Assembly: GCA_040954595.2 (NCBI GenBank)
Contig: CM082583.2
Span: forward strand, 3,543,060 to 3,607,059
DNA length: 64,000 nt
DNA from: Balanoglossus misakiensis
Taxonomy: Eukaryota; Animalia; Hemichordata
Reading direction: 5' to 3'
The notes under the pieces were generated by a model that saw only the letters and a program-made list of their open reading frames with translations, ran no database searches and was not told where the DNA came from. The translations under genes were made by a program, and so were the position numbers. Below, piece after piece: positions 2,420-54,161 of this stretch (its first letter is position 1; each line of letters begins with the position of its first letter).

Positions 2420-3298
2420 TGTGACCGCCAAAGCTTTTCCGTAATATTCAAAAGTCAGAGTCGAGTTTCCATATACGGGTCTTCGGTTTATTATCGATAA
2501 ATCGATCGAGCGATCGCCGAAAGCGACCGTACGAGACTGTACACAATAGTCGAAAGACTTCGAAAGACGAGATGTGCGCAGACCTCGATGCGAATAGGCC
2601 AAATAGACCTCGAGAATGACCGAGACTGATTCGAATAGACCGAGCAAACCGTGGTACGAATAGACCGAGTAAACCGTAAACCGTAAAAACTGAAACATAA
2701 ATACAAATACAAAATGTCAAATCGAAAGAATTACATACACGAAAATCGAGAATGATTTCAATCGAAAACAGATATGTGCAAGCAACACAGTTCGATGTAC
2801 GTGACTGATGTAAAAGATGCAGACAACTCGTCAAAGTCTAATTACAATAAAGTTTCACGAAATACAATTCATATCTGTAAGAATACCGAAAGATATATTA
2901 CCTCGCTGGCGACTTGTAAAGCCTTGTGGTCGGGAAGTTTCGAAATACGAACGAAATATCGAAGGGTGCGAAACGAGAGACGAGGGTGTACTTCACCGTC
3001 CCATAGCGAAGTCGAAAACACGAGGTAAAAATGTGTAGTGATATGACAATCGTAGATGGACTACTTGTAAAACTTTTGGGCGAAATATGGTTTGTCGATG
3101 TGTTCACAATGACCTTCAAAGGTACACATAAAGTCACAACATCTTTCTCTGTGAAAATTAAAAGTCTACAATATCGAAACTCGTAACAAAAAGGGAACTA
3201 TTTTTATGGAGTAAGGTTTTAAAGCAACAAACTGTTCGTGCATATCCCTCATAATTAAAAATACGAAATTCCTTTGTTTTTGCATGGCTTCAGCCACA
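2420..3298 (-). repeat. 3' LTR (879 bp)
   Basis: Matches 10310-11188 with no differences seen by eye; minus-strand AATAAA at 2487-2492; preceded on the minus strand by the PPT. Confidence 0.96.
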
Positions 3299-3306
3299 CT
3301 CCCCCC
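3299..3306 (-). other. Polypurine tract (GGGGGGAG)
   Basis: Plus-strand ctcccccc directly abuts the 3' LTR, the canonical PPT position. Confidence 0.9.
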
Positions 3307-3403
3307 TAAAATCACATTGATTTTACCTAATCGAAACACTGAAAACAACTACCAAATACGTCCAAGCTATTTCTCAGCTCTCCCCTGTGTCGCTGAGAAC
3401 AAC

Positions 3404-6400
3404 TTACCTTAGCATTTTTTCTGCTTCGGGATTTTCTACCAATAAAACAAGCTTATGAATAGGCCTTTCTAAAATTGTTGCCTTGTCTACTTTCTTACCT
3501 TGTCCTTGTTTCGAGAGGTTGGGATCACCCACAAGGATAGTGACTCTGCGTATCAAACAATCATCATCGCGCAAAGTGTCTATTACTTTTGCAAGTCTCC
3601 ACTGATTTCTCACAGTGTCATCTTCCTTCAGAAGTACAATATCTCCAGCTTCAAGGTTTCTCTTTGTTTCCTGCCACTTCTGTCTGGCCTGTAGATTCTG
3701 TAAGTATTCCTTACGCCATCTTGTCCAGAACTCGTTCGCAAGATACTGAACAGCACGCCATCGTTTCCTGGCATACAGATCTTCTCTGACGAAGTTGCCT
3801 GGCGGTGGCAAAATCACATCCGATTTCATAGTCAGCAGCTGATTTGGAGTAAGAGGCATCGGTCCAGTAGGGTCGTTCAAGTTTTCTGCTGATAAGGGTC
3901 GACTATTCACGATCGCCATTGCTTCGTACATCAGAGTACGAAGAGACGAAGTGTTCAATCTGGATCCCATCTTTTCCAGAATTCCTGCGAGAACGTTTCT
4001 GACCGACCGTATTTGACGTTCCCAAACGCCTCCCATATGACTCGAGGAGGGTGAATTGAAAACAAATTCACACTGTCGTTTGGACAACACATCTTTGATT
4101 CTTCCTTCGTCGAGAGCTTGCAATCCAAGCTGAAGCTCATTCCTGGCTCCTACGAAATTGGATCCCCGATCACAACGCAAGTGTCGTACGGGTCCTCTGA
4201 TAGCGATGAATGTGCGAAGCGAATTCAGAAATGCATCGGTTGACATTTCTTCGACAACCTCTATGTGTATGGCTCGAAGCGCTAGGCAAGTGAAAATGAC
4301 ACCATATCGTTTCACATCACTGCGGCGTTCCTTCACGACGAAAGGTCCAAAGCAGTCCATTCCACAATAGGTAAATGGCGGCGATGGCTCGAGACGATCT
4401 TTGGGCAAATCTGCCATTCTCTGTGTGTTGGCCTTGCCTCTGAGTTTCCTACACTGAACACACTTGTGTATATACGAAGCGACTGCTGCGTTGCAGTTGA
4501 TGATCCAGAATCCACACGATCTGAGTTTGTTCACTGTAATACCACGTCCCTGGTGGGCCACTTGCTCATGACACCATCTGATAAGCAGTGCAGTCACGTG
4601 GCTCTTTCGAGGTAGAATAATAGGGTGCTTGACATAGTCAGGCATGGAGGATCTACTCAGTCTGCCTCCAACTCTGAGTATCTGCTGATCATCTAGGTAT
4701 GGGTTCAATGGGTACAGGTGACTTTTACGTTTCACCATTGAGGGTTCACTGTCTTCTGAGGTGCGACATTTCAATGACTCTATTTCTTCTTTGAAAGCTT
4801 CCTGTTGGGCCCATGCCACGATGGCCATGGTAGCTTTTTGTCTTGTTTCTCCGGAAGCAATTTCCTTTCGCTTTCCCTTCCCGGATACATAGCGATACAA
4901 GGTGGCGAATGCTCCTACAACCTTGTTCCAATCCGAAAATCGCTCTACACGATGTAACATGGATGACGTTGCAGTCGAGGAAGTCATCAATGTTCTGGTA
5001 TTCTTTACCTCGGGGTCATCTGCTGACACCTGTGCGTCTACCCGAGTGGACAGAGGAAGCTCTTTGTCCCACAAAAAGGCAGGACCTCTAAACCAATTGG
5101 ACTTCATCAGTCCATCAACGCCGAGTCCACGAGATGCATGATCTGCAGGGTTCTCCTCAGTGTGGACATAGCGCCACTGCTCTGGCTGAGATGATTCTTT
5201 AATTCTTTGTATGCGATTCGCGACATATATGTGGAAGCGGCGAGCATCATTTCCTATGTAGCCGAGTACCACTTTCGAGTCTGTCCAGTAGAAGTTCTCC
5301 ATCACTGGGTAATCTAACTCTTTGTTCAGTAGATTGCTGACCTGTATAGAGACAACAGCAGCTTGAAGTTCCAATCGAGGAACAGTAATGGGTTTCAAAG
5401 GGGCGACTCTAGCCTTTCCCATCACGAGCGAACAATGAATATTATCTAGACTGTCGACTAGTCTGATATACGAACACTGCCCATAACCTGTCAGGCTGGC
5501 ATCCGAGAAGTGGTGAAGCTCAACTTTCTTCACTGGTCCGAAATGTTGCGGCTTGAAGCACCTTCTTATCTTCAAGTCGTCTAGCTTGGGCAACTCAGCA
5601 AGCCATGATTCCCACCTCGGACGTAAATCGTCTGGCAAGGGATCATCCCAATCGGTTCCTTTCTTGCACATCTCTTGCAAGATCCGTTTTCCTCGAAGTA
5701 CGAAAGGTGCGAGAAATCCGAGAGGATCGAAAACAGATGCTACTGCCGAAAGTATTCCACGGCGAGAAGGCGAGTGCATCTTGACGATAGGCGAAAAATG
5801 GAACGAGTCTGACTCAACGCGCCACTCGATTCCAAGTGCTCTTTCGATAGGTAGCTCACTGAACGACAAATCCAAATCCTTGACGTTCTTGGCACGCTCT
5901 GAAATAGGGACAGATTCCATCGTAGTTCTGTCATTCGATATGAACTTGTGCAGACGTAAATTTCCTTCTGCGCAAAGGTTGCGAACATCCTGTATAAGTT
6001 GGACAGCCTCTGATGCCGTCTCGAGACTATGGAGACCATCATCAACATAGAAATTCTTTGCGACGAAATCTACTGCACTCTTACCATGTTGTGGGTTGTC
6101 TTTGGCCACTTGTCGAAGTCCGTAGTTCGCGCATCCCGGCGAGGACACAGCGCCGAATAGGTGAACATTCATCCTGTAGGTAACTGGTTCCGAGTCGACA
6201 TTACCATCTCTCCACCAAAGGAATCGGAGATAGTTTCTGTCATCTTTCTTGACTCTGAATCTGTGGAACATTCGCTCGATGTCACACATGACTGCGATGT
6301 TCTCTTTACGAAAACGACAAAGTACACCGATGAGGGAATTTATCTGATCCGGTCCCTGCAACAAATGATCGTTGAGGCTCGTTCCCTTGAACCTTGCACT

Positions 6401-9400
6401 ACAATCGAACACGACACGAATTTTGTCTGGTTTTTGAGGGTGATACACCCCATGGTGTGGAATATACCACATCGATCCATCATGTGTATTCTTGTCGTCG
6501 ACCAGTTCCGCATCTCCTGACGCGATAATGTCTTCCATGAAGTTTCTGTAGTCGTTCAGATACTTTGGGTTTGACTTGAAGCGCCTTTTCAAGTACTGAA
6601 GTCTCTGCTGCGCTATACATCTGTTGTTTGGAAGCGCTGGTCTATCTTGTCTGAATGGAAGTGGCATTGTATAGAATCCATCTGGTTCTTTCGAAATACC
6701 ATTTTCCATGATCTTCAAAAATCGAATGTCGTCCTGAGACATGGCGGTTTCTTCAACTCTTTGTTCGTTGAAGTCCGATTCGAGAATTCTCACCACGTCC
6801 AAAGGGTTGAGGACTTGCTCCTTGGCTGTGGTCTTAAAGGCATAACGAACTGCCGACGAATGAGACTCTTCCATACGAAGTCTCTGCTGACTGTCTACAC
6901 CTGGTTGTAGACCGTCTGGTATCACCCTTGTAAGTACTCTATGGGTAAAACTGAAGACATCTTCCCTTTCATCTCGATGTGTAAGATGTCCGACGATGCT
7001 CCATCCTAAGTCTGTCTCTACTGCGAATGGCTGATTTCCACTGCCTGTGACACAGCTACGAGGTGCTAGGGCTTGAGGACAATCATAACCTATCAACAGA
7101 CCAACTTCACATTTCTGTTGAGGATGAATACGAGTAGCGATTTCTCTAAGATGAGGCCACCCATTGGCCATATCACGAGTGGGTATGTGCGATTTTTCCA
7201 CTGGTATGTAATCAAGCGAATACGTAGTGGGCAACGGAACTATTTTGTCACAGTCAAACCCGCGAACTCTGAGTTTGCGATACTTGTGACAGGCAACAAC
7301 CTTGTTGCTCGTTGTCATGGTTGTCATACGGAGGTTTGCTGGCTCAGATGCTGTATGTAGCTGTTCAGCGACATGATCCAACACGAAAGTAGTATCTGAC
7401 TGTGTGTCCAACAGCGCGTACACTAGAATCTCTCTGTTCGGTTCTTCGTATCCAGAAATCCACACTGGAACGATCATCGACGAAATAGACTTTCCTCGTG
7501 GGCAAGTCACACCATAGCAGTCCGCTTTCTTCGTTTCGGGTGTGGTTTCTTTTCTGTAGTCTCGCACTGGAGACTGAACAGTGCTCATGGTTTCGTTCAT
7601 GGACGAGTTAAACATCCTCGGCTGGACAATTTTTTCGTCGGAATGCAGACTGGTGGGATGTTTCCTACTGCATTTTTTACACACGCCACGGGATTTGCAG
7701 TTCTTTGAGATGTGCCCCGTGTTAAGACATCCGAAGCAGTAACCGCCCTTTCGAACAAATTCCTGTCTTTCAGACATAGGCGTGGAAGCGAAGCGATAAC
7801 ATTCCTGTATAGCGTGCCCAGTCTTTTTGCAGAAAACACACGACTGGTTTACCGCCCCTGGTTTTGCTGTGGTCGAGAGCGTACGTGCACCTTGGGTGCG
7901 CCTCCTGGTGCTGGTCGGAGTTTTCTCCGGGTCTCTGTCTGTTGGGGACCTCAGCGAGCCGATTGAGGTCAATGGGTCACATGCAATATCTGCCTCTTCC
8001 TCCATGAAGCAGACAAATCTTTCGAATGGGGGGTATGCGTTCGTAGCCTTCTTTATTCTTGCTACGATCCTGCTCCATCTGTTTACGAGCCAGTCCGGTA
8101 ACTTCTGGAGCATTTTCCTATTTTCGTGGATATCGTTCAGCACTGCGAGGTCTGGGATATCCTTCATCGCAATCCGGCATTGTTTCAAGAAGTCTGCGAA
8201 CTTTCGCAATGCCTTCCCGTCCTTGCCGGGGATTCTCGGCCATCTTTCAATTTTTTCTCTAAAGGCCTCTGTTACGGCGAAAGAATTACCGTATCGTTCT
8301 TCCAGAATGGTTCTTGCCTCTTCGTATGCTCCTTCACTTCGGAGTAAGAAGCATCCGGCGACTGCTTCCTTAGCAGGTCCACCCAAATACTTCTTCAGGT
8401 GATGGATTCTTTCGATTGGTGGGACCCCTCGTGATTCAACTAAGGTGATGAAAGACGATATCCAATCTGGATAAGAAAGTGGGTCTCCCATGAATATTGG
8501 TGGTTCGGGTGTAGCGAGTCTGCTCAAGGACACAGATGTTGCCAAGGCTTCTGTCAATACCTTGAGGTCTTCTCTGTTCTCCGATGGGCGATATTCATTT
8601 GCTGTTGCACGTAGTGTATAATCTTGTGGTTTCGGTTGCGACGTCGACGGCTTGGTAGTCGGCGGGGTGACTGGTTCTGCTTTTACAGTACGCGCGGGAA
8701 TATGAGCAGCGGGTGTCGACTGGCTGATCGGTTCAGTCTTCACGACAGGCAACTCGCTTGTCACCGGTGGCAACATAGTCTTCGCTAATGGCAGGTTGTA
8801 AAGTAGTTCTTCTCTTTCACAAGCAGCTATCTTCGCTTTCTCCACATGTAGTTCTCCTACTAATTTCTGTCTTTCTAGCACTCTTTTCCTACGACGTATT
8901 TCTGCCTCAGCTTCTTCTTGGCGTCTTCTCTCTTCTGCCACAGCTGCCGCTTGTCGTCTTTTTTCTTCTGCCTCTAAGTGTTCCAATTCCTCTTCATGTG
9001 CTGTCTCTTCATGTTTTGCTTCGATTTCCGCCTGTAGGGCAGCTGCCCTGACAGCTGCGTTTCTCCGTACTGATGACGTACTGGAAGAGCTGGATCGTTT
9101 GGATGACCTAGAGCTCGACTTTGTGTGATGTGAAGGCACGGATCCGAATGAAACTGAGCTATGAGCATCGGCTCGCGCAATCAGTCGCTGTGCATAATTG
9201 ATGACACTATCCACGCGCAAATTCAAACGATCGACGGCTTTCAATACATCCTCTAAGGGGGTGTCCGACACGGCGCGTATCTGATCATGAATTTCAATCA
9301 AAACAGTGCGCTCGCGCTCTATTTCTTTCAAAATAGTATATATGTTTTCTACAGACTCTTTGTCGAATATGTCAGGGTTTTTCACAAATGACAACAACCG

Positions 9401-9619
9401 ATTGTGAGTACGCCAGAACTGCTTCTCCAAATCAATTAACTTACCTTCCCTAGCTTTCTCAGTAAGCTTGGGTACTCGTTCTGATCTGCGTAATGTGTAC
9501 ACATTTTCATCCATTTCAGTTTCATGAATCTCTGCTTTTGTTACAATTTGATCTGTTTCATCAGGCTTACCTTGATCATCAGCGGTTGGCACTGATTCCT
9601 GTGTGTCCTTTTCGGCCAT
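3404..9619 (-). CDS. Bel/Pao Gag-Pol polyprotein (~2071 aa from the ATG at 9619)
   Basis: Uninterrupted ORF. Three zinc knuckles (CVFCKKTGHAIQEC, CFGCLNTGHISKNC, CKKCSRKHPTSLH); protease ALLDTQS; RT motifs WYIPHHGV, KIRVVFDCSA, DIERMF, YVDD; Pao-type RNase H (HHFSDAS, RLELQAA, WTDS, NPAD); integrase HHCC plus D-D-E (GMDCFGP, CDRGSNF, WERQI). Confidence 0.96.
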   Translation of the reverse strand: MAEKDTQESVPTADDQGKPDETDQIVTKAEIHETEMDENVYTLRRSERVPKLTEKAREGKLIDLEKQFWRTHNRLLSFVKNPDIFDKESVENIYTILKEIERERTVLIEIHDQIRAVSDTPLEDVLKAVDRLNLRVDSVINYAQRLIARADAHSSVSFGSVPSHHTKSSSRSSKRSSSSSTSSVRRNAAVRAAALQAEIEAKHEETAHEEELEHLEAEEKRRQAAAVAEERRRQEEAEAEIRRRKRVLERQKLVGELHVEKAKIAACEREELLYNLPLAKTMLPPVTSELPVVKTEPISQSTPAAHIPARTVKAEPVTPPTTKPSTSQPKPQDYTLRATANEYRPSENREDLKVLTEALATSVSLSRLATPEPPIFMGDPLSYPDWISSFITLVESRGVPPIERIHHLKKYLGGPAKEAVAGCFLLRSEGAYEEARTILEERYGNSFAVTEAFREKIERWPRIPGKDGKALRKFADFLKQCRIAMKDIPDLAVLNDIHENRKMLQKLPDWLVNRWSRIVARIKKATNAYPPFERFVCFMEEEADIACDPLTSIGSLRSPTDRDPEKTPTSTRRRTQGARTLSTTAKPGAVNQSCVFCKKTGHAIQECYRFASTPMSERQEFVRKGGYCFGCLNTGHISKNCKSRGVCKKCSRKHPTSLHSDEKIVQPRMFNSSMNETMSTVQSPVRDYRKETTPETKKADCYGVTCPRGKSISSMIVPVWISGYEEPNREILVYALLDTQSDTTFVLDHVAEQLHTASEPANLRMTTMTTSNKVVACHKYRKLRVRGFDCDKIVPLPTTYSLDYIPVEKSHIPTRDMANGWPHLREIATRIHPQQKCEVGLLIGYDCPQALAPRSCVTGSGNQPFAVETDLGWSIVGHLTHRDEREDVFSFTHRVLTRVIPDGLQPGVDSQQRLRMEESHSSAVRYAFKTTAKEQVLNPLDVVRILESDFNEQRVEETAMSQDDIRFLKIMENGISKEPDGFYTMPLPFRQDRPALPNNRCIAQQRLQYLKRRFKSNPKYLNDYRNFMEDIIASGDAELVDDKNTHDGSMWYIPHHGVYHPQKPDKIRVVFDCSARFKGTSLNDHLLQGPDQINSLIGVLCRFRKENIAVMCDIERMFHRFRVKKDDRNYLRFLWWRDGNVDSEPVTYRMNVHLFGAVSSPGCANYGLRQVAKDNPQHGKSAVDFVAKNFYVDDGLHSLETASEAVQLIQDVRNLCAEGNLRLHKFISNDRTTMESVPISERAKNVKDLDLSFSELPIERALGIEWRVESDSFHFSPIVKMHSPSRRGILSAVASVFDPLGFLAPFVLRGKRILQEMCKKGTDWDDPLPDDLRPRWESWLAELPKLDDLKIRRCFKPQHFGPVKKVELHHFSDASLTGYGQCSYIRLVDSLDNIHCSLVMGKARVAPLKPITVPRLELQAAVVSIQVSNLLNKELDYPVMENFYWTDSKVVLGYIGNDARRFHIYVANRIQRIKESSQPEQWRYVHTEENPADHASRGLGVDGLMKSNWFRGPAFLWDKELPLSTRVDAQVSADDPEVKNTRTLMTSSTATSSMLHRVERFSDWNKVVGAFATLYRYVSGKGKRKEIASGETRQKATMAIVAWAQQEAFKEEIESLKCRTSEDSEPSMVKRKSHLYPLNPYLDDQQILRVGGRLSRSSMPDYVKHPIILPRKSHVTALLIRWCHEQVAHQGRGITVNKLRSCGFWIINCNAAVASYIHKCVQCRKLRGKANTQRMADLPKDRLEPSPPFTYCGMDCFGPFVVKERRSDVKRYGVIFTCLALRAIHIEVVEEMSTDAFLNSLRTFIAIRGPVRHLRCDRGSNFVGARNELQLGLQALDEGRIKDVLSKRQCEFVFNSPSSSHMGGVWERQIRSVRNVLAGILEKMGSRLNTSSLRTLMYEAMAIVNSRPLSAENLNDPTGPMPLTPNQLLTMKSDVILPPPGNFVREDLYARKRWRAVQYLANEFWTRWRKEYLQNLQARQKWQETKRNLEAGDIVLLKEDDTVRNQWRLAKVIDTLRDDDCLIRRVTILVGDPNLSKQGQGKKVDKATILERPIHKLVLLVENPEAEKMLR

Positions 9620-10262
9620 AGTTGAACTTGGGTGAACACAACTAGAGAGCTGAAACAATCACTGTGACTATTCAGTGTAGATACAAATTTGGAAATCTAA
9701 ACCCGAGGGAGTAATTACACAAGCAATTTGATGCCGGGTACTGACAGTGAACAATTTCAAACACTTTGACAAATACAAAACTGTGTGAGTTTCAACAAAG
9801 GAGACTCTCTGTATCGCAAAGGCTGATACGAGTGACACTAATGTGCACAATTTGGGGACATTGATAAAACTGAATGTTCAAATCACACATGCACACAAGC
9901 CAAAATGACAATGAGGAAATGTGCTCAGAGTTCAAAGTTCAATATTAATGTTCAAAGTCAATGTTCAATATTCTGTCCTAATTCCGAAGGAGAGTGTCCA
10001 GAATGTTCAATCTGCTGCTTCTGTTAACAGTCGCTGAACGTCTTCACTCTTCTCTGCAGTCTGTAGTCTTCATGGGTTGATTCAACAGTAGGGTAATAGG
10101 CGAATACTGGCTGAACCATGTAACAGCGCCCTCGACGACGAGTCTTCGGATGAACCGATGACGTCACACACAATGATGTAGGACGATAATTTCACCTCCA
10201 GATCGAACAGCAATAAAATCGTTGAAAGACTTACGTCCGTTCCGAGTTCTGTTTCGAAGGTC

Positions 10263-10309
10263 CGAGTTCCTACTCGCGCTCGAGTTTTTACTAGCGCCCG
10301 AGTTTTTAC
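10263..10309 (-). other. Non-canonical primer-binding region: three 18-bp-period repeats starting GTAAAAACTCG
   Basis: Immediately after the 5' LTR the minus strand reads gtaaaaactcgggcgcta gtaaaaactcgagcgcga gtaggaactcg; there is no TGG start complementary to a tRNA CCA end. Confidence 0.7.
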
Positions 10310-11188
10310 TGTGACCGCCAAAGCTTTTCCGTAATATTCAAAAGTCAGAGTCGAGTTTCCATATACGGGTCTTCGGTTTATTATCGATAAATCGATCGAG
10401 CGATCGCCGAAAGCGACCGTACGAGACTGTACACAATAGTCGAAAGACTTCGAAAGACGAGATGTGCGCAGACCTCGATGCGAATAGGCCAAATAGACCT
10501 CGAGAATGACCGAGACTGATTCGAATAGACCGAGCAAACCGTGGTACGAATAGACCGAGTAAACCGTAAACCGTAAAAACTGAAACATAAATACAAATAC
10601 AAAATGTCAAATCGAAAGAATTACATACACGAAAATCGAGAATGATTTCAATCGAAAACAGATATGTGCAAGCAACACAGTTCGATGTACGTGACTGATG
10701 TAAAAGATGCAGACAACTCGTCAAAGTCTAATTACAATAAAGTTTCACGAAATACAATTCATATCTGTAAGAATACCGAAAGATATATTACCTCGCTGGC
10801 GACTTGTAAAGCCTTGTGGTCGGGAAGTTTCGAAATACGAACGAAATATCGAAGGGTGCGAAACGAGAGACGAGGGTGTACTTCACCGTCCCATAGCGAA
10901 GTCGAAAACACGAGGTAAAAATGTGTAGTGATATGACAATCGTAGATGGACTACTTGTAAAACTTTTGGGCGAAATATGGTTTGTCGATGTGTTCACAAT
11001 GACCTTCAAAGGTACACATAAAGTCACAACATCTTTCTCTGTGAAAATTAAAAGTCTACAATATCGAAACTCGTAACAAAAAGGGAACTATTTTTATGGA
11101 GTAAGGTTTTAAAGCAACAAACTGTTCGTGCATATCCCTCATAATTAAAAATACGAAATTCCTTTGTTTTTGCATGGCTTCAGCCACA
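10310..11188 (-). repeat. 5' LTR (879 bp)
   Basis: Copy of 2420-3298, upstream of the gag-pol ORF on the minus strand. Confidence 0.96.
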
Positions 11189-13038: not shown

Positions 13039-16000
13039 ATGGCGACTCAAATACGCTCAAGGAAATCAACGAAAGAGTCTGCATCAATTCTGAAGCCAAA
13101 TAGTAGCAAGTCGGATTTAGAATCTACAAGCAGGTACGTACCACTAGTACCTCCATGGTACCACAAAGTCAAATGCTGTGGAAACATCTTGGTGGTGGTG
13201 GTCACAGGCGCTCAAGACGATCGCTTCGCGATGGGGGGGGGGGGGGGGGCTGCAGTTCGCGATGGGTAGGGGTGGGGGGCTTCAGTACCCCTAATTTTAT
13301 AATATTAGGGGTACTGAAGCCTTCACCCCCACCCATCGCGAACTGCAGCCCCCCCCCCCCCCCCCCATCGCGAAGCGATCGTCTTGAGCGCCTGTGGTGG
13401 TGGTGGTGGGGGGGGGGTGTCTCCTGGTGGTGGGGAAACCAGCAGTACCCACTAGATGGAATAATCATAGCCATGGTTGACTGGTTGGTTGGCTCCAGCC
13501 ATCAGCTAGCCCTGTGTGGCAGGGCTGTGTGTCTTACGGCGATGCCTCCACACCCACACTGGTCACAGGCATCGCCGTAAGACATAGCCCTGCCACGCAG
13601 AGCGTCCCGTGCTACTGAAAAGTTGTCTAGCCTTTGCATACTAGATTGTCAAGAATTACTTTTAGCTGCACTGCCTCCAAACTTCGAATACTTTTGGCTG
13701 CACTGCCGGATAGGATGATTTGTTTTGATCACATGTGTAATAATTTTTTAATGTGAACATGAAAAAGCCTATATTGAGACTGCAGGTCACCACTGTTTTG
13801 TCTCTTCTCCCTAACTGTTTACCAATAAAAAGGGTCATATTTAACCACTAAACATACAGTGTACGTGTGGCTACGCTACACTAGACTTACAATACTGATT
13901 CTGCATAAAAATTGCAATCTTTAAATGATTAACCCAGAGCTATAACATGTAACGTGACACTAGTATCTGCAATGTAAGAAACAATGTTCCGATATATGGA
14001 GTCCTTAAATTTAAAACCTTGCTTAAAAACCCTCCTAGAGGGAAAATTCCTCTGAGGAAATAAAACAAAATTTCTCCGGGTATTACTACTTTCAAGGTTC
14101 AGAGTCTCTGAACCTTGAAAGTAGTAATACCCGGAGAAATTTTGTTTTATTTCTTAACAAAACACAATTAGAACCTGATTTTTTGGTGGTAAGCGCATAG
14201 ACTGACCCAATTACTAACACATACTGGAAAACTCCTAAACAGCGCCCTCACAAAACAAAAACTCTTTTATTTCCCTCAAAACGTTGTACCTTGAGAAATA
14301 ACATTTTTTAAAGATGTGTACGACTGAGTTTGGAGGCAGCGCAGTCATATACCTGGACACTCAAGCCAGACTAGACTATCAGCTGAGCCCATTGCCTTGA
14401 GGCTAGACCAATTTACCCGTATGACCAAGTGGCCACATTTTAATTCATTTTGACTAAAACTCTTATACACTACACAGTCTTGTCAGGTACATGTACTACA
14501 ATGCATTGACGTTTGAGGTTACACAGGTCTCATCATGTTTAATTTTTAATGCAATTAGCCATCACAAATAATACTGAATCGAACTTCCATCATGGATCTA
14601 ATCATGCATAATCTTTGTTACTATTATACAGATAATTAATTTGCTGTCATTGCAAGTTAAATTAACTGCCAATGCAAGAAAGACTGAAGCCAATTAATCC
14701 ATAGCATGATTAGGGTCTCGCATGTCTTCACAAGAAAACACTCCCTACCACCAGTTCAGACGCTTGTTAAAAAGGGGCAATGTGGATATATTTATAAGTG
14801 AATCAACGGTCGACCACACACAACTTCCTTCCCACTTGTAGACGCGAGAGTGAAAAACTTGCCAAAATGAATAATCAGTCTCTACCACTTATTCATTTTG
14901 GGCGAGTTTTAACTCTCATATCCTACAAACGGGAAGTTGTGTGTGGTTGAACGTTCATTCATTACATATATACATGTACATTAACATAAACGGTGTCTTG
15001 TAACAAGCATAATTAATGGCAAAAGGGCAGCGAGAGAGAAACTTTGTCCCTTTAATCACTTGATTACAGTCAGAGAAGCGGAACCAGTGTCAGCTCTAGT
15101 GATGAAAGCAAATCTGAACTAGAACCAGCCTTAAAGGAACGGAAAAGAAGAATTAGTAAGAAAGTTGCATGTATCTTGCCTGCTGGTCACCTGACTGCAA
15201 TACCATGGGGCGTGCTTGTTGGTGCATTCTGGATTTTGGATGTTTTCAGGAATGCTGTCAGAGTGAGTCAAAGTATATCTGTGCTAGGACTAGGAGCTGT
15301 CTTTGCTCTATTTTTATCTGTTCATGACTTAACAAGTTTGGTTTGAAAAAATAGAATAAATGAAAGGTTCCACAATGCCATATGGAGTAATTGAGATATT
15401 TCTCCTAATTGTTGTACTCCTTGGGTGCCTTTTATGAGAAAACCTTTAAATTCGCATGGAGTGTATGGGATCAGATGATATCAGTCTGTCTGTAATGTGT
15501 GTATGTAGCTTTCACCACTACATGTATTATTTATGGGGCTAATATTGAAATTATTAAGATCACGTTACTGTACACCGTACTTGCAATTGATTATACTTCA
15601 ACATGCTATCTTTGTGTATTTCAGGTCTTTTGGCCTGACATGTTTGTTTTTGTTGATGGTTCAATTATGGCAGCATTTATGCATATAGCTTACAGCATTA
15701 TTGTTCCTGTGTGTTTTTACCAGGTAAGCATGAACTGTGGTTAAAGTCTCATGCACAATTATTTCAGACTAGATATATTTTTTTATTTTCAGAAGATTCA
15801 AAATAGTTTGTTTGTGGGTCATTGTACAAACAATTGTAGATTGTAATTTATGTACATTGTATGTATTACAGTCTGTGGTACAATTGACTTTCACCATTCG
15901 ATGACACACTCCAAATGATCTGTTGTAAGGCAAAGGCTTATCTCAACATTTCCTGTCACATCTATCAATACTAGTGACAGTGTCAACTATTTAGTTTTTA

Positions 16001-20764: not shown

Positions 20765-22039
20765 TCTAAAACATAAAAATGTCAATCACTTCAAGCAACA
20801 GCAAAGGGACATGCTCAATATACATAAAATCATTGATTAAAAAAATACTGCACCTGAGTTTGTCACAAACAAGCAATTTCCTGTCAGGCATGCCTCAACT
20901 TGATCCTATCATCTTTTATTTTCTGTACATTACTGACATGTTTGAACATAGACCCTATAACAGCATCTCTACGAATCTGTCAGATTGCAGAAATTGTTCC
21001 AAGAGACGGGTTTCTCTGAGATGTTGTCCCTGCCCCACGTTTCCATGACAAAAGGCATTTTCAGATGGGAGTACCATTTAAACATTCCGAGTATTTGTTT
21101 AATGGAGTTGCCATATTTGTCAAGTTTTCAACATTTGTGTTTGAGTGATATTCATATAAAACTTCTTAAATTTATTTTTCGTGTTGATACTGTGCATTAT
21201 TTATTATTCTCACACTCCTAGCACGCTGGGAGTGTGAGAACAGAGTGTGAGAACAAATGGACATAGTGCAGAGAACTTGTAGATTTGGCTCAGTCTGTCT
21301 GTGCGTCCCTGCATACAAAGCCATACCACAAACATGCCTCTGTTACATTTCTACTGTTCTCCCTAGAAATGCGACGGTGTTGTGGATAATTTGCATTGCA
21401 GCTGAAGTGATTGTTAGGTCCCATTTGGTGTATGTAAATGTACCATGGGTATATACATTTCAGGTTTGAGACGGCTTTGCCAGCAAGACCTGAGCTGGTG
21501 TAAAGGATTAACAACACACTGTCTATGGGGCTGAGCACCAGGCTCTATGCTGTAACTTTGTGTGTGTGTTGACAGAAAGCGCCTCACAATTTTCGTTTTT
21601 TTTCCAGAGAAGTCTGAAAGTTCGTATCGATATCACATTAATAAAAATAATATACAACATTGTCCTTTTCTTCAAAATAACAGTACTTGTCAGAATCAGT
21701 CAAATTCCATTTACAAAGGAGAACATAATAACAAACAAACACATATGCAACATTTGGTATCTTTATAAAATATCAGAAAGGAAGCATATAACCATACATA
21801 CACCATGTTTATTTTTAACGTTATGATTCCTTTATTCTGAGTTCTCTGGTATGGGTGTACAACTCGATTCTATGTTGGTCAAATGAAGATGTGCACGATA
21901 ATAAATAATTTTGTAAATAAACAAATAACATGATCTAAACTTGATGTGAACTTCAACTGGCAACCAGTGTAAATCGGCAAGTACAGGTGTAATGTGGTCA
22001 AATTTCCTCGTCCGGGAGACTAGGCGAGCTGTTTATGTT

Positions 22040-22181
22040 ATTCTACATGTGGATATATAGTGAATCAAAGTTCGACCACACACAACTTCCATCCAGTTTG
22101 TAGGATATTAGAGTAAAAATCTTGCCAAAATGAATAAATGGTAAATACCGATTATTCATTTTGGCGAGTTTTTCACTCTCG
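22040..22181. repeat. Fragment of the AGGGACA MITE family
   Basis: Shares ctacatgtggatatatagtgaatcaa...gaccacacacaacttcc...ttattcattttggcgag with 37445-37791. Confidence 0.7.
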
Positions 22182-29300: not shown

Positions 29301-29737
29301 CGTTTGTTGTGCACTTTGAAAAATGTGTGAACACATTTCACATCTGCGCGTCACTCAAAGATTGCCAGCTGTTTGCATCGAATAATGATTGTTTCACATT
29401 CATGGGTGAATTATATTGTTCTAAAACACGATTTCCCAAATACTCCTAGCTTTGTCGAATGCTCACGTACCATTTTGTCAAAACATGCAGGGTATAGGTG
29501 TTTATAAAATCAGATGTTGTCGTGGTATTAAAGCCATGTTTCTGCGTGAAACTTGTGTTGGCCGATTTTCACAGAGAAATCAAACGCCAGGTTTCAAATT
29601 GACAAACATTAGCCTCGGGTGAAGCATTGGCTTTATTTTTGATCGGTGATGTTGATGAAAAATAGAGAGCAAATAAGACCGACATTCTTATTTGCTACAC
29701 AAAGGGGGGGGGGGGGTCAGGGTTAAGGAAATGTTAA

Positions 29738-30457
29738 AGGGACAAAGTCTCTCTCTCGCTGCCCTTTTTCCATTAATTATGTTTGATACAAGACACTGTT
29801 TATGTTATTCTACATGTGGATATATAATGAATGAATGTTTGACCACACACAACTTCCATCCCGTTTGTAGGATTTGAGAGTAAAAACTCGCCCAAAATGA
29901 ATAAATTGTAGAGACCGATTATTCATTTTGGTGAGTTTTTTTCACTCTCGTATCTACAAGTGTGATGGAAGGTGTGTGTGGTCGAATGTTCATTCACTAT
30001 ATGTAATTAAGGCCAGAAAGAAAAAAAATCTTGTTCATCGGATTTTTTGGACCTAGTTCCAGGAACGGCGAGCGAATATTTTTTTTTTAGGCTGAAGGTA
30101 AATGCGGTTCTCTGGCATATTTGCTCAGATGCAGACAGGGCGAGATAATTGTTTCCCTCTTTACCAGAAATATATAAGACAAAAACACTGATACATGTAC
30201 TTGTAACTGAATTCAATACTATATTTCCCAACAATAACATAGGCCATTACATTTACAGTTGGTGTTTGCACAACATATTCTGGCCACCAGCGGCAGTGAC
30301 TAAGAATTTTGTAACGCGGAAGTAGAATATTTGCCGAGATCCAAAAAAAATAAAAATTTCCAAATCAGCCAAAGTAGAAGCGGCGATTCCGATGAACAAT
30401 TTATTTTTTCTTCCTGGCCTAATGGATAAAGGGCAGTGAGAGAGAGACTTTGTCCTT
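29738..30457. mobile_element. AGGGACA-family MITE carrying a nested insertion
   Basis: ttaa-agggacaaag...ctttgtcctt-ttaa; similarity to 37445-37791 is interrupted by 30011-30419. Confidence 0.8.
30011..30419. mobile_element. PIF/Harbinger-type MITE (TAA duplication)
   Basis: TIR ggccag(a/g)aagaaaaaa; TAA at 30008-30010 and 30420-30422; the sister host copy shows the empty site aattaatgg near 37751. Confidence 0.75.
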
Positions 30458-31655: not shown

Positions 31656-34053
31656 AATTTGATTCATATGGTGAGTATTAATTACCTACTAAATTCAATT
31701 AAGGTAATATATGTGTTTTATTACCGATTTCGATATTGCTAAGATGAATCCAAAATTGGCTATGTAAAGAAATTAGGTTAGTTTTCATATTTAGGTTAAG
31801 ATCTGAAGGTTTGCAATGAAAAAGCTTGTAGCTGACACAGGGTTAAAACATTTCAAGCACTGGCGATGTACGTATAAGGCTTATATTTTAACAAATGAAT
31901 AATTCACACAACTTGCAAGTTGTATACGGCTGTCGCCGAAAATGATATTGTACCCTCACAATCATCGACATTTGACTAATCTAGTTAGTGTCATGAAACT
32001 ATGCTGGTGACAGCCAACTTACCAGCAGGCACTTCGGAAACATTGCAAGTCGCCTGTGTTCTTTGTCACGTGACTGGTGTAGAATGTATTTATATTTGGC
32101 TGTGAATAATTTGTTTTGTTTAATTGAGATACATTAAATTTGGAAAGCAATCGGCGTGTCGTTGTGTTCGCTCTATTATTTAGCATGGGGTGTGCAGATT
32201 ACTGTTGAAACGCGCTTTTTGCATGTTTTCACGTGTGTGTCATGCCAACTGAATGCAAATGGGAGAAAACGAATAGCTGTAACAACAAAAGGCAATTAGT
32301 CAGGAGTTATTCTTGAGAGACTCATTGGGAATTGTCTTTACTTCATTTTCCTCTAGTGCTTTCAATGATTTGTATGAACGTCGTAAAAATAACATATTCT
32401 GGGGGGGGAGGAGTTTAATGTACCGAGTCAAGGCTTCAATACATCGATAGCGGAAGTACCGATGCAAGACGACCGTCGTTGGAAATGCGCATGCGCCCAA
32501 CAGAGGGACTCGCTGCAATCATTTATTAATGTCAATCGGGATGGTATAACGGATTTTTTGGTTAGTATATATGGTCCCAATAGCAAAACTCTGTAATTAT
32601 GAGATTGCATTCATGTAGCGTGACTTGAAAACAAGAAAGTATTATTTCATCATGCATCACTGAGGGAAATGTCAAGCAGTTGTTTATGTCTCAGGTGCAC
32701 CAGGTCTAGTATCGTTGTTTATAGGCATGTCGATAACATTATGAATTATTACATAATTAAACTAGAGTCGGTCATCATTCTCGTAAATATTCAAATTGTG
32801 CATCTGCTCTGTCCATACATGATTGCTTCGCTCATTTCGTGGTTTTGGAGAACAATCGCGAAGAATATACTCGTGTGGGCGTGATAAATATTTTCAACAC
32901 AAATTGATTGCACCATAATTTGATAGCTAGGTGAACGACAAAATGTGATAGCGGTGGACATCATAGCCGTGAAATGAAATGCAATATTAAAAAGTAACCA
33001 TATAACTTACAACATCTCCATCGAGGGAAACGCTCACGCTGAAGGTCAATCGTGATATGAATATTCCTTAACCCTTTTAAGTCGTACTTTACTAGTATTT
33101 CTCTATATTTAGCTACTATTCATTACATGAAACAGGTTCTTAAGTGCAATATTCACACGTGACCAACAGCAATCGTGGCCTTGGTTGAATTCATGTGTTT
33201 CATTATAGACACCAGTAGACCAAGGCATTCTTGTAACCAAGAAAATGTTTTGACTTAATCTTTGACCATCTAAATGATTACAATCACTACTAATTTGCAT
33301 ATGCCAATATACTTAAATGGGCGTGTCTAAGTTTTCGATTGACCTTGTACTGGCGCACTTTTTTCGCGTTACCACCCAGTGAAAATCTGTGATTGGCCAG
33401 ATCTCAACTTTCCATTTATAACTGTGCCCGCATTTGCAAAGGTGGCTGTATACTAAATATGAACGAACAATGCAAGCTTATGAATGCACTACCAAAGAGC
33501 CTTTCTTGACAATGACTAATTAACATGCATACAGTCTTCTACAAAACGTGCGGCCGGTGACATATGGCAATCTTATCAACACAATGAATACATTTGCACG
33601 ACATATGTCTGTACTTTATTTTGCACTAATTTGTTGATCAGCCAGTTACTGCCATACGCTATGACATCTTTTGAATAATGAAAGACAGAGAAATCCTGAT
33701 AAATACTTTTCTACTAAGTCACTGACGCACATGATATGCATAGATAAATCATGTATGACACGTGTACAATGCAACAAATTTAATCGGTGAGGAAAGTAGC
33801 GCTGGAAATAACGGAAATGAAAAAAATCACACGAGAAGGATGCTGATTTACATTAAATGTATACAGTCACATTATGCAAAATTTAATCATAATTACCACG
33901 GGGAATTCAAATATAGCCAATCACATATTTTCAGTGGGTGATGGCACACGCGGAAAAAGTGCGCCGGTCACCACGTGGCCAGTCGAAAATTTAGATATGC
34001 CCTTTTGACCATTTATTGGCATATGAGCATTTCAGATGACAGTCTACCTTTAA

Positions 34054-34662
34054 AGGGGAAATCCGTCGTAGCTGATTTCTACATAATTTGGTAGCTTTGA
34101 TGTCACTCTTTCAGAAAAAAACATATTCGCCATGTATAGGTCGCGCGATTTTTTACAAAATCTAGAGAAAGTTCCAATATGGCGTTTACTGTAATTTGAA
34201 TCATGGGAAAAAAAGCGCCAGGACCAACTTCCGCCCACCTTAGTGTGGGTGATACCATTTTCCGATTGGTGTCACTGCGTCACAAGCTAAGCGTATTTGC
34301 ATATTTTCGATGGGTTATAGCTCATGAAAACTGTCAATAGATGACAAATTTTCGACTTTGCTGATGATTGTTTATCAACTGATGCAAAGAACAAACAATA
34401 GCTATGAAAATACGCCTAGTCTGTCGCCCAGTGACACCTATCGGAGAATGGTATCACCCACACCATGGTGGGCGGAAGTTGGTCCTGGCGCTTTTTTTCC
34501 CATGATTCAAATTACAGTAAACGCCATATTGGAAATTCTGCCAACTTTCCCTAGATTTTGTAACAAATCGCGCGACCTATACATGGCGAATATGTTTTTT
34601 TCTGAAAGAGTGACATCAAAGCTACCAAATTATGTAGAAATCAGCTACAACGGATTTCCCCT
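34054..34662. mobile_element. 609-bp fold-back element with long TIRs and TTAA flanks (Kolobok-like non-autonomous)
   Basis: ttaa-aggggaaatccgtcgtagctgatttct...agaaatcagctacaacggatttcccct-ttaa; arms complementary over more than 200 bp (mirror ORFs 34050-34238 and 34358-34666). Confidence 0.85.
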
Positions 34663-36835
34663 TTAAGAAGTCAACACTGGTGAAGTAATGATGTGGAATG
34701 AATATGAGCTTTTGGTTAGTGCCGTGAAACATATGGTCACTTTTTGAAACGAGACAACGTTTCTAAATCGAGATGAAAGCTTCAAAAGCTCTGCGGCAAT
34801 TTTGATTGACATGACTATGAGTCTTTATATCTATTTTTGAGGGAAGGGAAAGGGAACTTTGAACCAATGGCCCTAGTTTTCCGATGGCTCATTGAAAAGA
34901 ATATTACTTATATAACTCTAGTCAACGAGCAATACGTTTAACTGCCCTACTGAAGAACTTGAAAATTCAGTTATACTCTTAACTGATGAATCACAAGTAA
35001 GAGCGAATACATTATACCGCCCTGAATCTCTACGACGTTTCTTTCATAGTGCTGAAACAATGTTTATATCGTGGATTTCATCTTACTGTCATCAATTTTC
35101 GAATACACTGCATTAGCGCTACCACCAAAGGCACTTAACCGCCATGCATAACTATCAATCTCTTGTTTGTGCAATTTCGTTTCACGACCCTTTACCAGTT
35201 GTTTCGTAGCCGCATTAAATCAGATGGCGTCATGTGTGTTAATGATGTAATGTATTGAATTGTTCACTGCAACACCTGCATGGGATGGGGTCAATATATA
35301 ATTGGTGTCGAAGCTGGGAGTAATAAATTGTTCTATTGAAATGATTAATGCATGATTTTAACACGCGCAACGTTATTGTGTCACTATTCTCGTTGTTATG
35401 TACTCGACGATATAGCGCACATAGCGTAGCATGACATGGCATAGTAGCATTGACTGGAATATTGACGCTGCATAACAAAACATGGCGTGGCGATGTGGGG
35501 GCATGGTATGGGGTGGTATGGGATGACATACATATCAAAGCAAGCCATAGCATAGTATAGCATTACGTATTATTTGGATTTTGATTCATTCCAATATTCC
35601 TTGGACAACTGATATACAATACATATGATCTCAAATCTGGAAGGCAGAGTCTTTGCTCATACGGATAGAAAACGAGGATTGGCAGTGAACCATTCCGTCA
35701 AATCGCATGGGACAGTCGAAATCATGTATCGGTAATTCACAGATTGTTTCGTTAATCCCCGACTTTAAAGCAACATTCATATATTTTGTTCATCACACAC
35801 CTGGGGGAAATAAAAACGAGAAGCACTTGTTTCTCTCTCCCTCCGGTGTTTTTGTTTCTTCACATTATTGACATTTATAAGTTATAAATAATGGATCTGT
35901 CTAAGAATGAAATCTCTATAGATAAAATCACATCGTAATGTTATAAAATGTCATTAAGCGGTTGCGCCAAGTAGAATATCCCTATTTTCAGTACTGATGT
36001 ATTGATTAAAATGCTTCTGGAAAACGACTGCAGGTTATTTGGTAAAGTACGATCCAAAGGTCCACGTGGCAACGGTTATATTAGTCTCTAGATGTACTCG
36101 ACGTATTCATTGCTCACTATATTTTTGGACGTTCAGAACTACTGTTATTCAAATATAGCTTTGCGAAACATGGCATAATAAGAGAGGACTAGAGAATTCA
36201 CCTACCATGCACAATTTCCAGAAGAGTATTTCTAGCACCCTGCGATTTATAGGCGACAACTGAAACAGTTTCGGTGTCGCGTCGCGTCGCGCAGTGGAGG
36301 AACTCATAGCATTTTCATATTTCAATTGAGTCATAATATTAGACTCGATGTTGATTAAATTGAATGACAATGTTTTAGCTTTGTTATTCAGAAATAACTG
36401 TATAGGCCCTACGCGTTGTCAACCAAAACTGAGAATTGAACAACATCATACTATACATGCACTTTATCAAGATACGAGCTAGCTGGAGAGACTAGCGTAG
36501 TTGTTATGGATACCATAATTTACATACGTGACATTAACATATTAACGATATCATGCATCCCTCAAACGTTTCGTGTAGTGTCAGTCTGGTGTAGTCTAAT
36601 TGCAAACGCAGTCATTTAAATATAAGCAGCATATATACGCACGTGGTTTTGTTAGTGATAAACAGATCTTCACAGATCTTGATTAGTGCAGTCTGTCGCT
36701 GCCGACAGTTCGGAAGGTCCCACGAAGCCGTGGATTATGCGATATTGTTATCCAGCTGAACCGATTCATTGCTTGTCTACAATGCTCCGAGTGTATCCGA
36801 CCGCTCCACAGCTGCAACGACGGGGGTACAGTCGG

Positions 36836-39800
36836 ATGTGGAATACAGTAGTTTTGACGCTGATGATGATCAGCAGGGTGTCGACACAAAGTGATAATGC
36901 TACCGTTGTTGAACAACCAAAGCATAATTCTTCCACAACTACCTTACTCCTAGACTCATTGCTCGAGGGATATGACAGAAGAATACGGCCCAATTTTGAC
37001 GGTAGGCACTAGATATGAATTATTAACTAAATTGCAGGCATGAAAAGGTACAAAATTAACCAGTTTTATACGAATTTCATTAACCTCTCAAGATATACTT
37101 TTGCCAGCATTTATGCAGTCATTGACTCAAAACTGAGTAGAAGCTTCAATTAATATTCAATTTATATTTGTAAATGTGGCCGACTATCGTCAGGTATGAA
37201 CCAGATGCTCTCGTATTAGGCAATATTATATATACTCACTCAGCCAGTTTGTTCTCCTGATGATTGAGTCCAGTGACTCACGAAACAACGTGGTAGAGAT
37301 TATACCGCCTACCGTTTCTCCAGCTTCCCTTACTTTATATTTCGCTCTACTTTTAGTATCGAGCACTTTGTTTCGGACCAGTCGAACCACATACTTCGTA
37401 TTGTTTGTCTGCAAATTTATAGGGTGTCGGCTGATACCCTTTAAAGGGACAAAATCTCTCTCTCCCAGGCCTGTTTCCCTTAATTATGTTTGATACAAGA
37501 CACTGTTTATGTTGTTCTATATGTGGATATATAGTGAATCAATGTTTGACCACACACAACATCCGTCGCACTTCTAGACACAAGAGCGAAAAATTCGCCA
37601 TAATGAATAATCGGTTTTTACCATTTATTCATTTTGGTGAGATTTTTACTCTCATATCCTGTAAACGGGATGGAAGTTGTGTGTGGTTGAACGTTGATTC
37701 ACTATATATCCACATGTAGAATAACATGAACGGTGTGTTGTATCAAACATAATTAATGGAAAAAGGCCTGTGAGAGAGAGACTATGTCCCTTTAATTGTT
37801 CTTGGGAGAATTTCCAAGTGGCCGTTTATAGTCCCAATTTCTCAAAAAGGTCATTTCTCATTGCTTATTTCTTTCATAATAAAGAATTAATGAGTACTTG
37901 TCTTAGGTACATTGTACGTATTACGATCTGTATTCAAATGAAAATACGTTATTGTGATCATACCGACCGGATAACACGAATTCTATTTTTCAATCTAGGT
38001 CCACCAGTTAATATTACCATTGATATGTTGATTAGCCGAATGGACAATGTCAATGAAATAAACCTGGTATGTATGATTCGTTTTTATAAATCAAAGTAAA
38101 TGAGATTACTAATTATAACAACTAACGATTTGTTATATAAACAATGATTTTAAAGGGTTGTTTATATAAATTGATGGCTATGATATGGTACCTGTGTTTA
38201 TGTGTCTGTCTGTCTGTCTATCTGTCTATTAGCACGATGGCTGTTAATTGCCAATCAATCACTATCTTTATGGGAGTGTCTTTACCCAAGTTATATTTTG
38301 GTACCACAACTCACTCGGCGGCTTTTGCACACACGATGTCCAAGTCCACCATTTGTAATGACCCACATCTCAACTTTGAATTTGAATTTAGTGGTTAAAC
38401 AAATTACGTTTCAATTGATGCATTGTGGTGATTTTAGAATAAAATTTCTCCCGTTAGCCGTTGACTGATTTAAAGGTATACGGTCACCTATGCAAATAAA
38501 GCTACAGTTACCATGACACATTGACATCTAGCCAATCACAGATTTTCAGTGGGTGGCACACGCGATAAAAAGAGCGCCACCATGTGTTCTTTAGAAGACT
38601 CAAATACGCCATTTCTGACATATGTGGGCGTAGTTAAATTGGTGGTGACCGTATACCTTTAAAACGCGCGTTTGTTGCATGGTGTCATTCAGAACGAGGC
38701 CTTACTAAATATGCAAATTACTTAACTTCGTTAGAACTGCGTAACGCGGTCGCCCACAACTCACTGCATCAGCACATAGACCCTAGAGAAAGATCTAGGG
38801 TCTATGATCAACACAAAAATGTAAACGAGCCCGTAAAACTGCAGGTCAGATAAATAATTTTCTCGGAAGTTCAACGTTGGAATGAAATCAAACAGTCCTT
38901 GTTTTTTTGCGTTGGAAACGCACTGTCGGGTCTCAAGTTTATGGTCATGGTAGCATGTGCGCGCGTATATTCACGTGTACGATGTGAATTACACGAAATC
39001 CAAAGAATTGTGGTCAACCTTTCATAATTTCCAGTATTTGACTGACTGCATTGATTAAAAACAATGCGTCTAACTTAACACTAACCTTCTCGTTTCACGA
39101 TATCTGTAGTTTCGATAGCGACCAAACCCTAACATACATGTATGTGCAATATTTTAGGCCAACTGGCGTAAAAGTCTGTCGTTTTATCCAAAACACTGAG
39201 TAGGCAACGCAAACGCCAAGTTGAAATCGCATGATTCCAGAGCACTCGTTTCTCCTTCGAAAATCTCTCTTTTTGATCTCAAAAATCCATTAAATACGTA
39301 CTCCACATAAAAAATAATTCATACGATGACCACACATGGCTTGACGAATACCGCGAGGCAAGTTTTTGTGTGTATATAGGGCTGACTGAACGCGCTATTT
39401 GAACCAGCCGCGCGCCACGGACGATAATATTGAACCCCAGCCCAGTGGCAAGCAGCGTAAAATCACGGCCGAGTGAAGCCCGACTTGAAACATCAGTATG
39501 AGTCGATAATTTTAGAATTCCATGGATATACGCATGAAGTTCCTAACCTCGCCGTGATATAATTTGGGACAACACATGTTTTAGAACAAACCATGTACCG
39601 CAGAATCTGAGTACATGGATGCCTACATTATTATCATTCGGAGATTTTATTGTTTTTTAGAGGAGTTGATAGGGCAGACATGGCATTTCGCGGTTCCGTT
39701 TTCACTGATGAATTCGATATTTTGACTAATATATGGACAGTCAATAGGATTGAAACTATTTTGGGATGATTGTATGCGAATCAAACGTGTACAAACGAGG

Positions 39801-53500: not shown

Positions 53501-53634
53501 TGTCCAAAAAAGGTTAAAACCAACGCAAAATGCATCATTGACTAGTAGAGCCAACCCACAATAGGTTACATTAATGTTTTGAATACTTGGAACCTGTTTA
53601 GCAGTTTCTCAGTAAAAGAATCTTTGGAAGAAAA
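50510..53634 (+). repeat. Direct repeat pair (~188 bp): 50510-50698 and 53446-53634
   Basis: tacaggctccaga...ctgacacactgcttcag...agaatctttggaagaaaa occurs twice with scattered mismatches. Confidence 0.85.
51655..53125 (+). mobile_element. Helentron/HINE-like non-autonomous element with internal ~239-bp tandem array, (CATC/CATA)n microsatellite and 3' hairpin
   Basis: Units beginning gtaggtcaaaggtcacctgaggtca at 51918, 52156, 52395; microsatellite ~52990-53065; hairpin aggtcccatggtata...tataccaatgggacct (53083-53119) followed by aaaa. The 5' boundary is approximate. Confidence 0.6.
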
Positions 53635-53672
53635 TATAGCAGCAAGCAGCAATGGCGGGGCCGAAGCCGGAA

Positions 53673-54161
53673 TGGTCATCTGAGGTCACCCGAAATTTGG
53701 GCAAAAATTTATTGACCCAATACTGGTCCAGGTCCATCAGAAACAAACCTTCAGCCCTATTGGTTCGCTTGGAATTAGGTATGCACATAATAAATGAGAT
53801 AAGCAGATGTCACAGGTGGCCTCAAAATTTGGCTTTTCATGTTAGTCCCATCCCTGCAAACGCGATGGCTGTACCTCCTAGCTCCTCTGGATGCCGAGAT
53901 ATGGGAGAGTAGGTCAAAGGTCACCTGAAATTTGGGCAAAAATTTTGAGCCCATACTGGTCAAGGTCCAACATAAACCTAACCTCCAGCCCTATTGGTTC
54001 GCCTGGAATTAGGTAGGCACATAATTAATGAGTTAAGCAGTTGTACACGTGACCTCAAAATTCGGCTTTTCATTTTAGTCCCATCCCTCCAAATGCCAAG
54101 GCTGTACCTGCTCTGGAGGCCGAGATATAAGAAAGTAGATCAAAGGTCACCTAAGGTCACC
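53673..54161 (+). repeat. Two diverged copies of the ~239-bp unit
   Basis: Same ggtcaaaggtcacc / ggaattaggtatgcacataat motifs as 51890-52580. Confidence 0.85.

Follow-up and report, generated by a model that had tools for sequence, protein, structure and literature searches.

The Belpaoviridae are delimited by the phylogeny of Pol. Among Bel/Pao elements, Cer7 of Caenorhabditis elegans is reported to supply a primer RNA from its own sequence, and a self-supplied primer is likewise proposed here; the Cer7 primer would be a separate internal RNA, whereas the primer proposed here is a spliced LTR joint. The primer of the yeast element Tf1 is 11 nt long. The ICTV profile assigns to Bel/Pao elements a primer-binding site of 18 nt that pairs with host tRNA-Arg or tRNA-Gly, and it calls their replication poorly understood (PMC8742986); the 18-nt tRNA site so described is absent both from the element analysed here, from the hemichordate Balanoglossus misakiensis, and from all 24 related loci that could be read.

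Tf1 and Tf2 of Schizosaccharomyces pombe, together with the Tf1/sushi group, take their primer from the RNA of their own LTR, the primer site adjoins the CA that closes the LTR, and cutting is needed to release the primer, all of which is likewise proposed here; as far as the available text of the sources goes, Tf1 and Tf2 are the precedent for cutting a self-primer out of RNA (10.1101/2022.12.06.519325; PMC5341516). The primer of Tf1 is contiguous at the 5' end of the RNA and requires a pretzel of three duplexes (10.1101/2022.12.06.519325; PMC5341516, available text), whereas in the present element a predicted intron divides the complement, which lies downstream of a longer first exon. The Tf1/sushi group also has a Ty3/gypsy chromovirus Pol with a chromodomain, unlike the present element, which is Bel/Pao and has none, and its contiguous LTR primer has no counterpart here, the longest contiguous complement being at most 9 nt in this element and in 24 of 24 related loci. 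By analogy, the present element likely uses a mode of priming like Tf1 self-priming, yet lies outside the Tf1 group. Non-standard primers have arisen repeatedly, as in the plant TAR copia elements (Houba, Osr-1) and Tcn1 (predicted self-priming) and in copia lineages primed by half-tRNAs; the available text gives no splicing step for any of these primers, unlike what is proposed here (PMC6317226).

No description of a splice-built primer came up in the literature searched, and an earlier one elsewhere is possible. The available text of PMC8220671, PMC6317226, PMC3601003, PMC5341516 and 10.1101/2022.12.06.519325 deals with self-priming, either contiguous or predicted, as it occurs in other groups, or holds nothing relevant. 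On word searching, PBS, primer and tRNA proved absent from PMC3118150, PMC6238403 and PMC8556966 (main texts), as did PBS, primer binding, tRNA and priming from the main text of PMC554778.

The Bel/Pao Element of B. misakiensis

The DNA analysed, referred to below as the window, is a stretch of 64,000 nt (GenBank assembly GCA_040954595.2, contig CM082583.2, positions 3,543,060 to 3,607,059 of the forward strand). It contains a young, intact element with the following parts:

2420..11188, minus strand: full-length Bel/Pao LTR retrotransposon
11193-11189 and 2419-2415: 5-bp target-site duplication GCCTG flanking the element
10310..11188, minus strand: 5' LTR, 879 bp, TG...CA, identical to the 3' LTR
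2420..3298, minus strand: 3' LTR, 879 bp, with the predicted intron kept at 2901-2690
3299..3307, minus strand: polypurine tract
3404..9658, minus strand: single gag-pol ORF of 2,084 codons between stops, with its first Met at 9619

Assignment to Bel/Pao follows from the TG...CA LTRs, the target-site duplication, the polypurine tract, the triple Cys-His box of Gag, the Pol order PR-RT-RH-IN and the presence of Pao-specific Pfam families. The gag-pol ORF encodes DUF1759, the triple Cys-His box, a protease, a reverse transcriptase (YVDD), an RNase H region, an integrase with D(61)D(49)E spacing and DUF5641. Its domain set and order, triple Cys-His box and YVDD are shared with Bel/Pao elements of the Sinbad/Sailor lineage (PMC554778, available text). 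The second integrase spacing of 49 residues falls inside the Bel/Pao range of 45-53 (Pao 45, BEL 53) and equals that of Sinbad, D(62)D(49)E, and of Saci-1, according to the available text of the same source (PMC554778). The third zinc finger of Gag is of the Sinbad type and not of the Suzu type when compared with that source, and, judged from the DD(49)E spacing and this finger, a Sinbad/Sailor affinity is likely. A protein search returned 1,418 relatives; of the 120 listed, those with a named source belong to fish, echinoderms, one hemichordate and one priapulid, at 47-51% identity.

No tRNA was found within the 64-kb window by ARAGORN, and Rfam returned just two weak snoRNA matches, far below threshold. 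A 174-codon stop-to-stop frame on the minus strand (10606-10082) spans the LTR end and leader. The window also holds a dispersed family of MITE-like repeats with inverted arms (14797-15056, 22029-22180, 29734-29947 and 37441-37796, the third copy with the primer-site 11-mer at 29880), a long palindromic element at 34050-34666 with arms 91-98% complementary, and a near-identical duplication of about 385 nt at 40828-42029, spaced 818-842 nt apart around a CAC repeat. Two further stretches, 51891-54152 and 62573-63909, are taken up by tandem arrays (233-238 nt) and by a compound minisatellite whose periods are 21, 41 and 73 nt.

A Primer Site Complementary to a Predicted Splice Joint

The region of the 5' LTR end and leader carries the following features (a slash marks a predicted splice site):

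10299..10309, minus strand: primer-binding site GTAAAAACTCG, 11 nt, not of tRNA type, adjoining the CA of the LTR (which ends at 10310)
10792..10801, minus strand: predicted end of exon 1, its last 4 nt (10795-10792) complementing site positions 8-11
10580..10791, minus strand: predicted GT-AG intron of 212 nt, donor CGAG/GTAATA at 10791, acceptor TTTCAG/TTTTTAC ending at 10580
10573..10579, minus strand: predicted start of exon 2, first 7 nt, complementing site positions 1-7
10377..10382, minus strand: AATAAA polyadenylation signal
10352..10366, minus strand: site in U5 resembling the primer-binding site (match 10360-10352)
10262..10298, minus strand: further copies resembling the site, 18-nt period, one exact (10291-10281), one degenerate near 10273
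10229..10234, minus strand: candidate donor of consensus sequence, GTAAGT, 75 nt past the LTR within the leader

The initial annotation had proposed that the 11 nt after the 5' LTR, rather than presenting the TGG of a tRNA site, are the exact complement of a splice joint in the LTR. All of its coordinates, for the site, donor, acceptor, 212-nt intron and AATAAA, proved exact on rechecking, and the joint 10791/10580 complements the site at 11 of 11 positions, the best result among all GT-AG joins in the window LTR. Its statement that unspliced RNA pairs over just 9 nt also holds, the longest unspliced complement in the LTR lying at 10581-10573. Past a 2-nt bulge the CGCC of exon 1 (10801-10798) can pair onward, as had been described, and an equal extension was attained by only 3 of 282 sampled LTR 14-mers. 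Pairing is flush with the LTR end, which places the predicted 3' end of the primer at 10573. The predicted intron has a GC content of 0.31 against 0.50 and 0.46 in its flanks, a pyrimidine tract and a branch-like TTGAC at 10610-10606. Both LTRs retain it, so the insertion derives from RNA with at least one unspliced copy.

The first reading missed the repetition of the primer site in U5 and leader. Between 10360 and 10243 lie five copies containing AACTCG: besides the site there is one copy in U5, and another three fall in the leader, including a further degenerate one near 10250. The first three past the LTR have an 18-nt period; the extra copies could serve as additional docking sites or as decoys. 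The LTR end and the beginning of the site (10310-10304, and the same in relatives) resemble a weak splice donor, CA/GTRA. Binding of U1 there, with the consensus donor following at 10234, could suppress polyadenylation in the 5' LTR, which is put forward as an idea.

Taken by itself the match in the window is no more than suggestive, since with the acceptor held fixed a matching GT donor was supplied by 0.07 of 3,000 shuffles of the LTR. When dinucleotide shuffles of the whole LTR were used, the 11-nt match was reached in 0.015 of 400. The same 11-mer recurs at 29880 in an unrelated repeat, apparently by chance.

Joints and Sites in Related Elements

Relatives were collected in one metagenome scan with Gag alignment, which yielded 48 loci; related-locus scans of viral contigs and prokaryote genomes found none. 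These relatives are collapsed metagenome assemblies, mostly with a single LTR, and the LTR end could be located in 24 of the 48, the other 24 being too short, rearranged or without such a site. The sequence after the LTR is GT(A/G) in all 24, none has TGG within the first 6 nt past the LTR, and none has a contiguous upstream complement of its site longer than 9 nt. In 20 of the 24 a YAG acceptor leads into a full or near complement of the first bases of the locus's own site, and no intronless copy was seen among these 20; the other four have too little upstream DNA. By nucleotide similarity the 24 loci form 14 families. The donor region was readable in 11 families, ten relatives and the window, with LTR starts approximate for L015, L020, L024, L027, L028, L031 and L032.

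The covariation check that had been called for was borne out in nine of these 11 families, the window counted: each has a perfect match of 10-13 nt over a GT-AG joint within its own LTR. The joints are given below as exon 1 end and donor, then acceptor and exon 2 start, then site, then length of pairing with spliced and unspliced RNA.

Window: CGAG/GTAATA; TTTCAG/TTTTTAC; GTAAAAACTCG; spliced 11, unspliced 9
L002: CGCG/GTATGT; TGTAG/TCTTTAC; GTAAAGACGCG; spliced 11, unspliced 8
L004: AGAG/GTATTT; TTCAG/TTTCTAC; GTAGAAACTCT; spliced 11, unspliced 9
L008: ACGAG/GTACGA; spliced 12, unspliced 9; intron of 1,321 nt (4129-5449)
L010: AGAG/GTATGC; spliced 11, unspliced 9
L015: AAAGAG/GTATGA; spliced 13, unspliced 9
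L019: AGAAG/GTAATG; TCCAG/TTTTAC; GTAAAACTTCT; spliced 11, unspliced 8
L020: CAAG/GTAACT; TTTAG/TTCTCAC; GTGAGAACTTG; spliced 11, unspliced 9
L022: AGAAG/GTTAGT; TACAG/TTTAC; GTAAACTTCT; spliced 10, unspliced 7

Substitutions and length changes at the joint are mirrored in the site across families, with six forms of the exon 2 start and five of the exon 1 end, each reflected in the family's own site. That the site tracks exon 1 and not the end of the intron is clearest in L002 (11 vs 8), L019 (11 vs 8) and L022 (10 vs 7). The predicted intron of L008, about five times as long as those of other families, sits in a 1.7-kb LTR. Gag identity among the nine families is 36-60%, and a tree of the related loci and host-labelled proteins places them on either side of its deepest fork, which has full support; L019 and L022 are sisters, and L010 and L015 belong to the same clade, so the nine families do not amount to nine independent trials.

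The misses are L027, which has no exact donor and whose likeliest donor leaves a one-base bulge, and L028/L032, with 3 nt of exon 1, an imperfect exon 2 part and many stops in the coding region. Inside matching families two copies depart by one base, L031 at donor position -1 and L024 at the last base of exon 2. The LTR ends in TA instead of CA in all six copies of one family (L009, L012, L018, L020, L021 and L024). A motif like CCG(C/T)TACA closes the LTR before the site in otherwise dissimilar LTRs (L004, L008, L010, L013-L015, L022 and L031; CCGC...TACA in L004). In L007 the primer site occurs three times between 53 and 130, with a 29-nt period.

Controls and Splice Signals

The end of exon 1 pairs over at least 4 nt with the family's own site in nine of nine cases and with the sites of other families in 10 of 72, all of them cases of a shared motif. 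Shuffled LTRs attained the observed match length in 0-1.5% of cases across the nine families, the null with a fixed acceptor ranged from 0.005 to 0.13 per family, and the antisense strands of the LTRs gave matches of just 0-7 nt. GT-AG ends, a donor consensus and a pyrimidine tract with YAG are present in all nine, the acceptor ranking 1-4 with ties included. A donor score blind to the primer site, built on base frequencies, ranked the matching donor first in eight of the nine LTRs and third in L008; the score covers exon positions -3 to -1 and is thus not fully independent of the site, and on intron positions alone the donors rank 2-15 of 12-111. When donor and acceptor were both picked blindly with crude scores, the joint was recovered in four of nine families (permutation p 0.004), another acceptor being chosen in the window.

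In each of the nine families the spliced RNA gives a more stable duplex with the site than the unspliced RNA does. The base 3' of the paired AC is always A or G and never the T that would extend pairing, so that pairing stops precisely where the LTR does. Pairing beyond the bulge falls in the top tenth for about five of the nine only; a branch-like motif, for which no null was computed, is present in five. Intron GC content is lower than that of the 80 nt upstream in eight families. A TATA motif lies upstream of the donor in two of nine, L020 (at -117, with an Inr-like motif at -87, 30 nt apart) and L019 (at -183), and in none of the other seven. Neither a Tf1-type pretzel fold nor shared flanking duplexes were found in the nine spliced fold models.

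Weighing of Alternative Explanations

By sequence comparison, the match between primer site and joint is a real and conserved feature. Chance resemblance to splice sites could draw on the value of 0.07 for the window alone and on the AG that precedes both joints, by which only 2 nt are gained through splicing; set against nine diverged families at 0.005-0.13 each under the fixed-acceptor null, with compensating changes, it has a negligible probability. Self-priming of the Tf1 type without splicing would have transcription start at an Inr-like TCAGTT overlapping the acceptor, the first 7-9 nt of the RNA serving as primer, and the window LTR does already offer 9 nt beginning inside TCAGTT. In L002 and L019, however, the unspliced match is just 8 nt, and in L022 it is 7 nt; the positions past it track exon 1 rather than the last bases of the intron in nine of nine, and the donors are left without explanation, which makes this reading very unlikely. 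A host spliced leader joined in trans to the acceptor, with the resulting joint as primer, would account for a strong acceptor at the right place. It is highly improbable given that the exon 1 part has five forms, each with a cis donor in the same LTR, whereas a shared leader would impose one per host. Somewhat less remote, though still unlikely, is a real LTR intron whose joint and site pair for another purpose, namely RNA folding, packaging or the control of polyadenylation, with a host RNA or fragment priming DNA synthesis: the LTR end does read like a weak donor, CA/GTRA, and priming by the joint is itself a conclusion drawn from sequence. Against it, the sequence and length of the site vary among families and always do so with the element's own joint, TGG sites are found in 0 of 24 loci, and the duplex is flush with the LTR end in nine of nine.

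A primer built by splicing could also act in trans, a geometry that is included in the preferred reading and is given a modest chance. A short, spliced and polyadenylated LTR-only RNA would be packaged in the manner of a tRNA, dock on the unspliced genome and be trimmed to the end of the duplex; in the boldest form of the splice-primer reading, the LTR would be a two-exon gene for a dedicated trans-acting primer RNA. The layout of a terminal exon, with A(A/T)TAAA 14-72 nt past the acceptor in seven of nine families (197 nt in the window, absent in L002), is as this geometry would have it, although a polyadenylation signal in the 5' copy is common to every LTR. The repeated sites in the window and L007 also favour it, as does the direct passing on of the intron by an unspliced genome. 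A cis helix fails in five of nine spliced fold models, but forms with a probability of 0.97-1.00 in the other four, L004, L010, L019 and L022. The window value of 0.00 arises because the look-alike in U5 captures the joint when the spliced model RNA takes its minimum-energy fold, at an advantage of 1.9-3.4 kcal/mol. In trans, the 1,321-nt intron of L008 would give a very long strong-stop DNA, compared with about 65 nt in cis. Cis is thus somewhat favoured, because four of the nine models form the helix and a 1.3-kb intron is tolerable if strong-stop DNA ends at the cut.

Proposed Mechanism

An LTR element needs priming at its LTR end, and because the sole complement found is the predicted joint of its own LTR, we infer a primer built by splicing. 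The primer site exactly complements this predicted exon-exon joint, and the spliced LTR RNA is probably the primer of reverse transcription, as the initial annotation had suggested, and the support for that interpretation is comparative. Transcription would begin in the LTR upstream of the donor, and the host spliceosome would remove the cap-proximal intron, joining the 4-6 nt of exon 1 to the 5-7 nt of exon 2 that make up the complement. The joint would then find its site, more likely within one RNA molecule, in cis as Tf1 does, than in trans. Directly after the paired AC the RNA would be cut or trimmed, probably by the RNase H of the element, leaving a 3'-OH, and the strong-stop DNA would transfer to the unspliced 3' LTR copy. 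With neither a cap nearby nor an exon upstream of its donor, that copy would escape splicing, and the intron would so be inherited. When LTR elements replicate, the primer is copied during plus-strand synthesis, as happens to tRNA primers. Through such copying the site would be rewritten again and again as the DNA version of the joint, from which tight covariation, including changes in length, would follow. The proposed model leaves the 10-13-nt limit of the perfect match and the retention of the intron without account.

Implications for Bel/Pao Elements and Their Hosts

On the comparative evidence, a Bel/Pao lineage of wide distribution, whose close protein relatives come from fish, echinoderms, hemichordates and priapulids, has probably swapped its tRNA primer for an RNA of its own LTR assembled by the spliceosome; the primer site would be a reverse-transcribed exon-exon joint, and host splicing would gate transposition. 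If this is true, it would add a third way of starting reverse transcription to the host tRNA and the contiguous self-primer, and the ICTV description would be overturned for a large animal lineage. It would also provide a simple annotation rule for Bel/Pao elements without a recognisable primer site. Transposition of these elements would hinge on a splicing choice that differs between two identical LTR copies, and the case would show how an intron can survive in an element that is copied via RNA.
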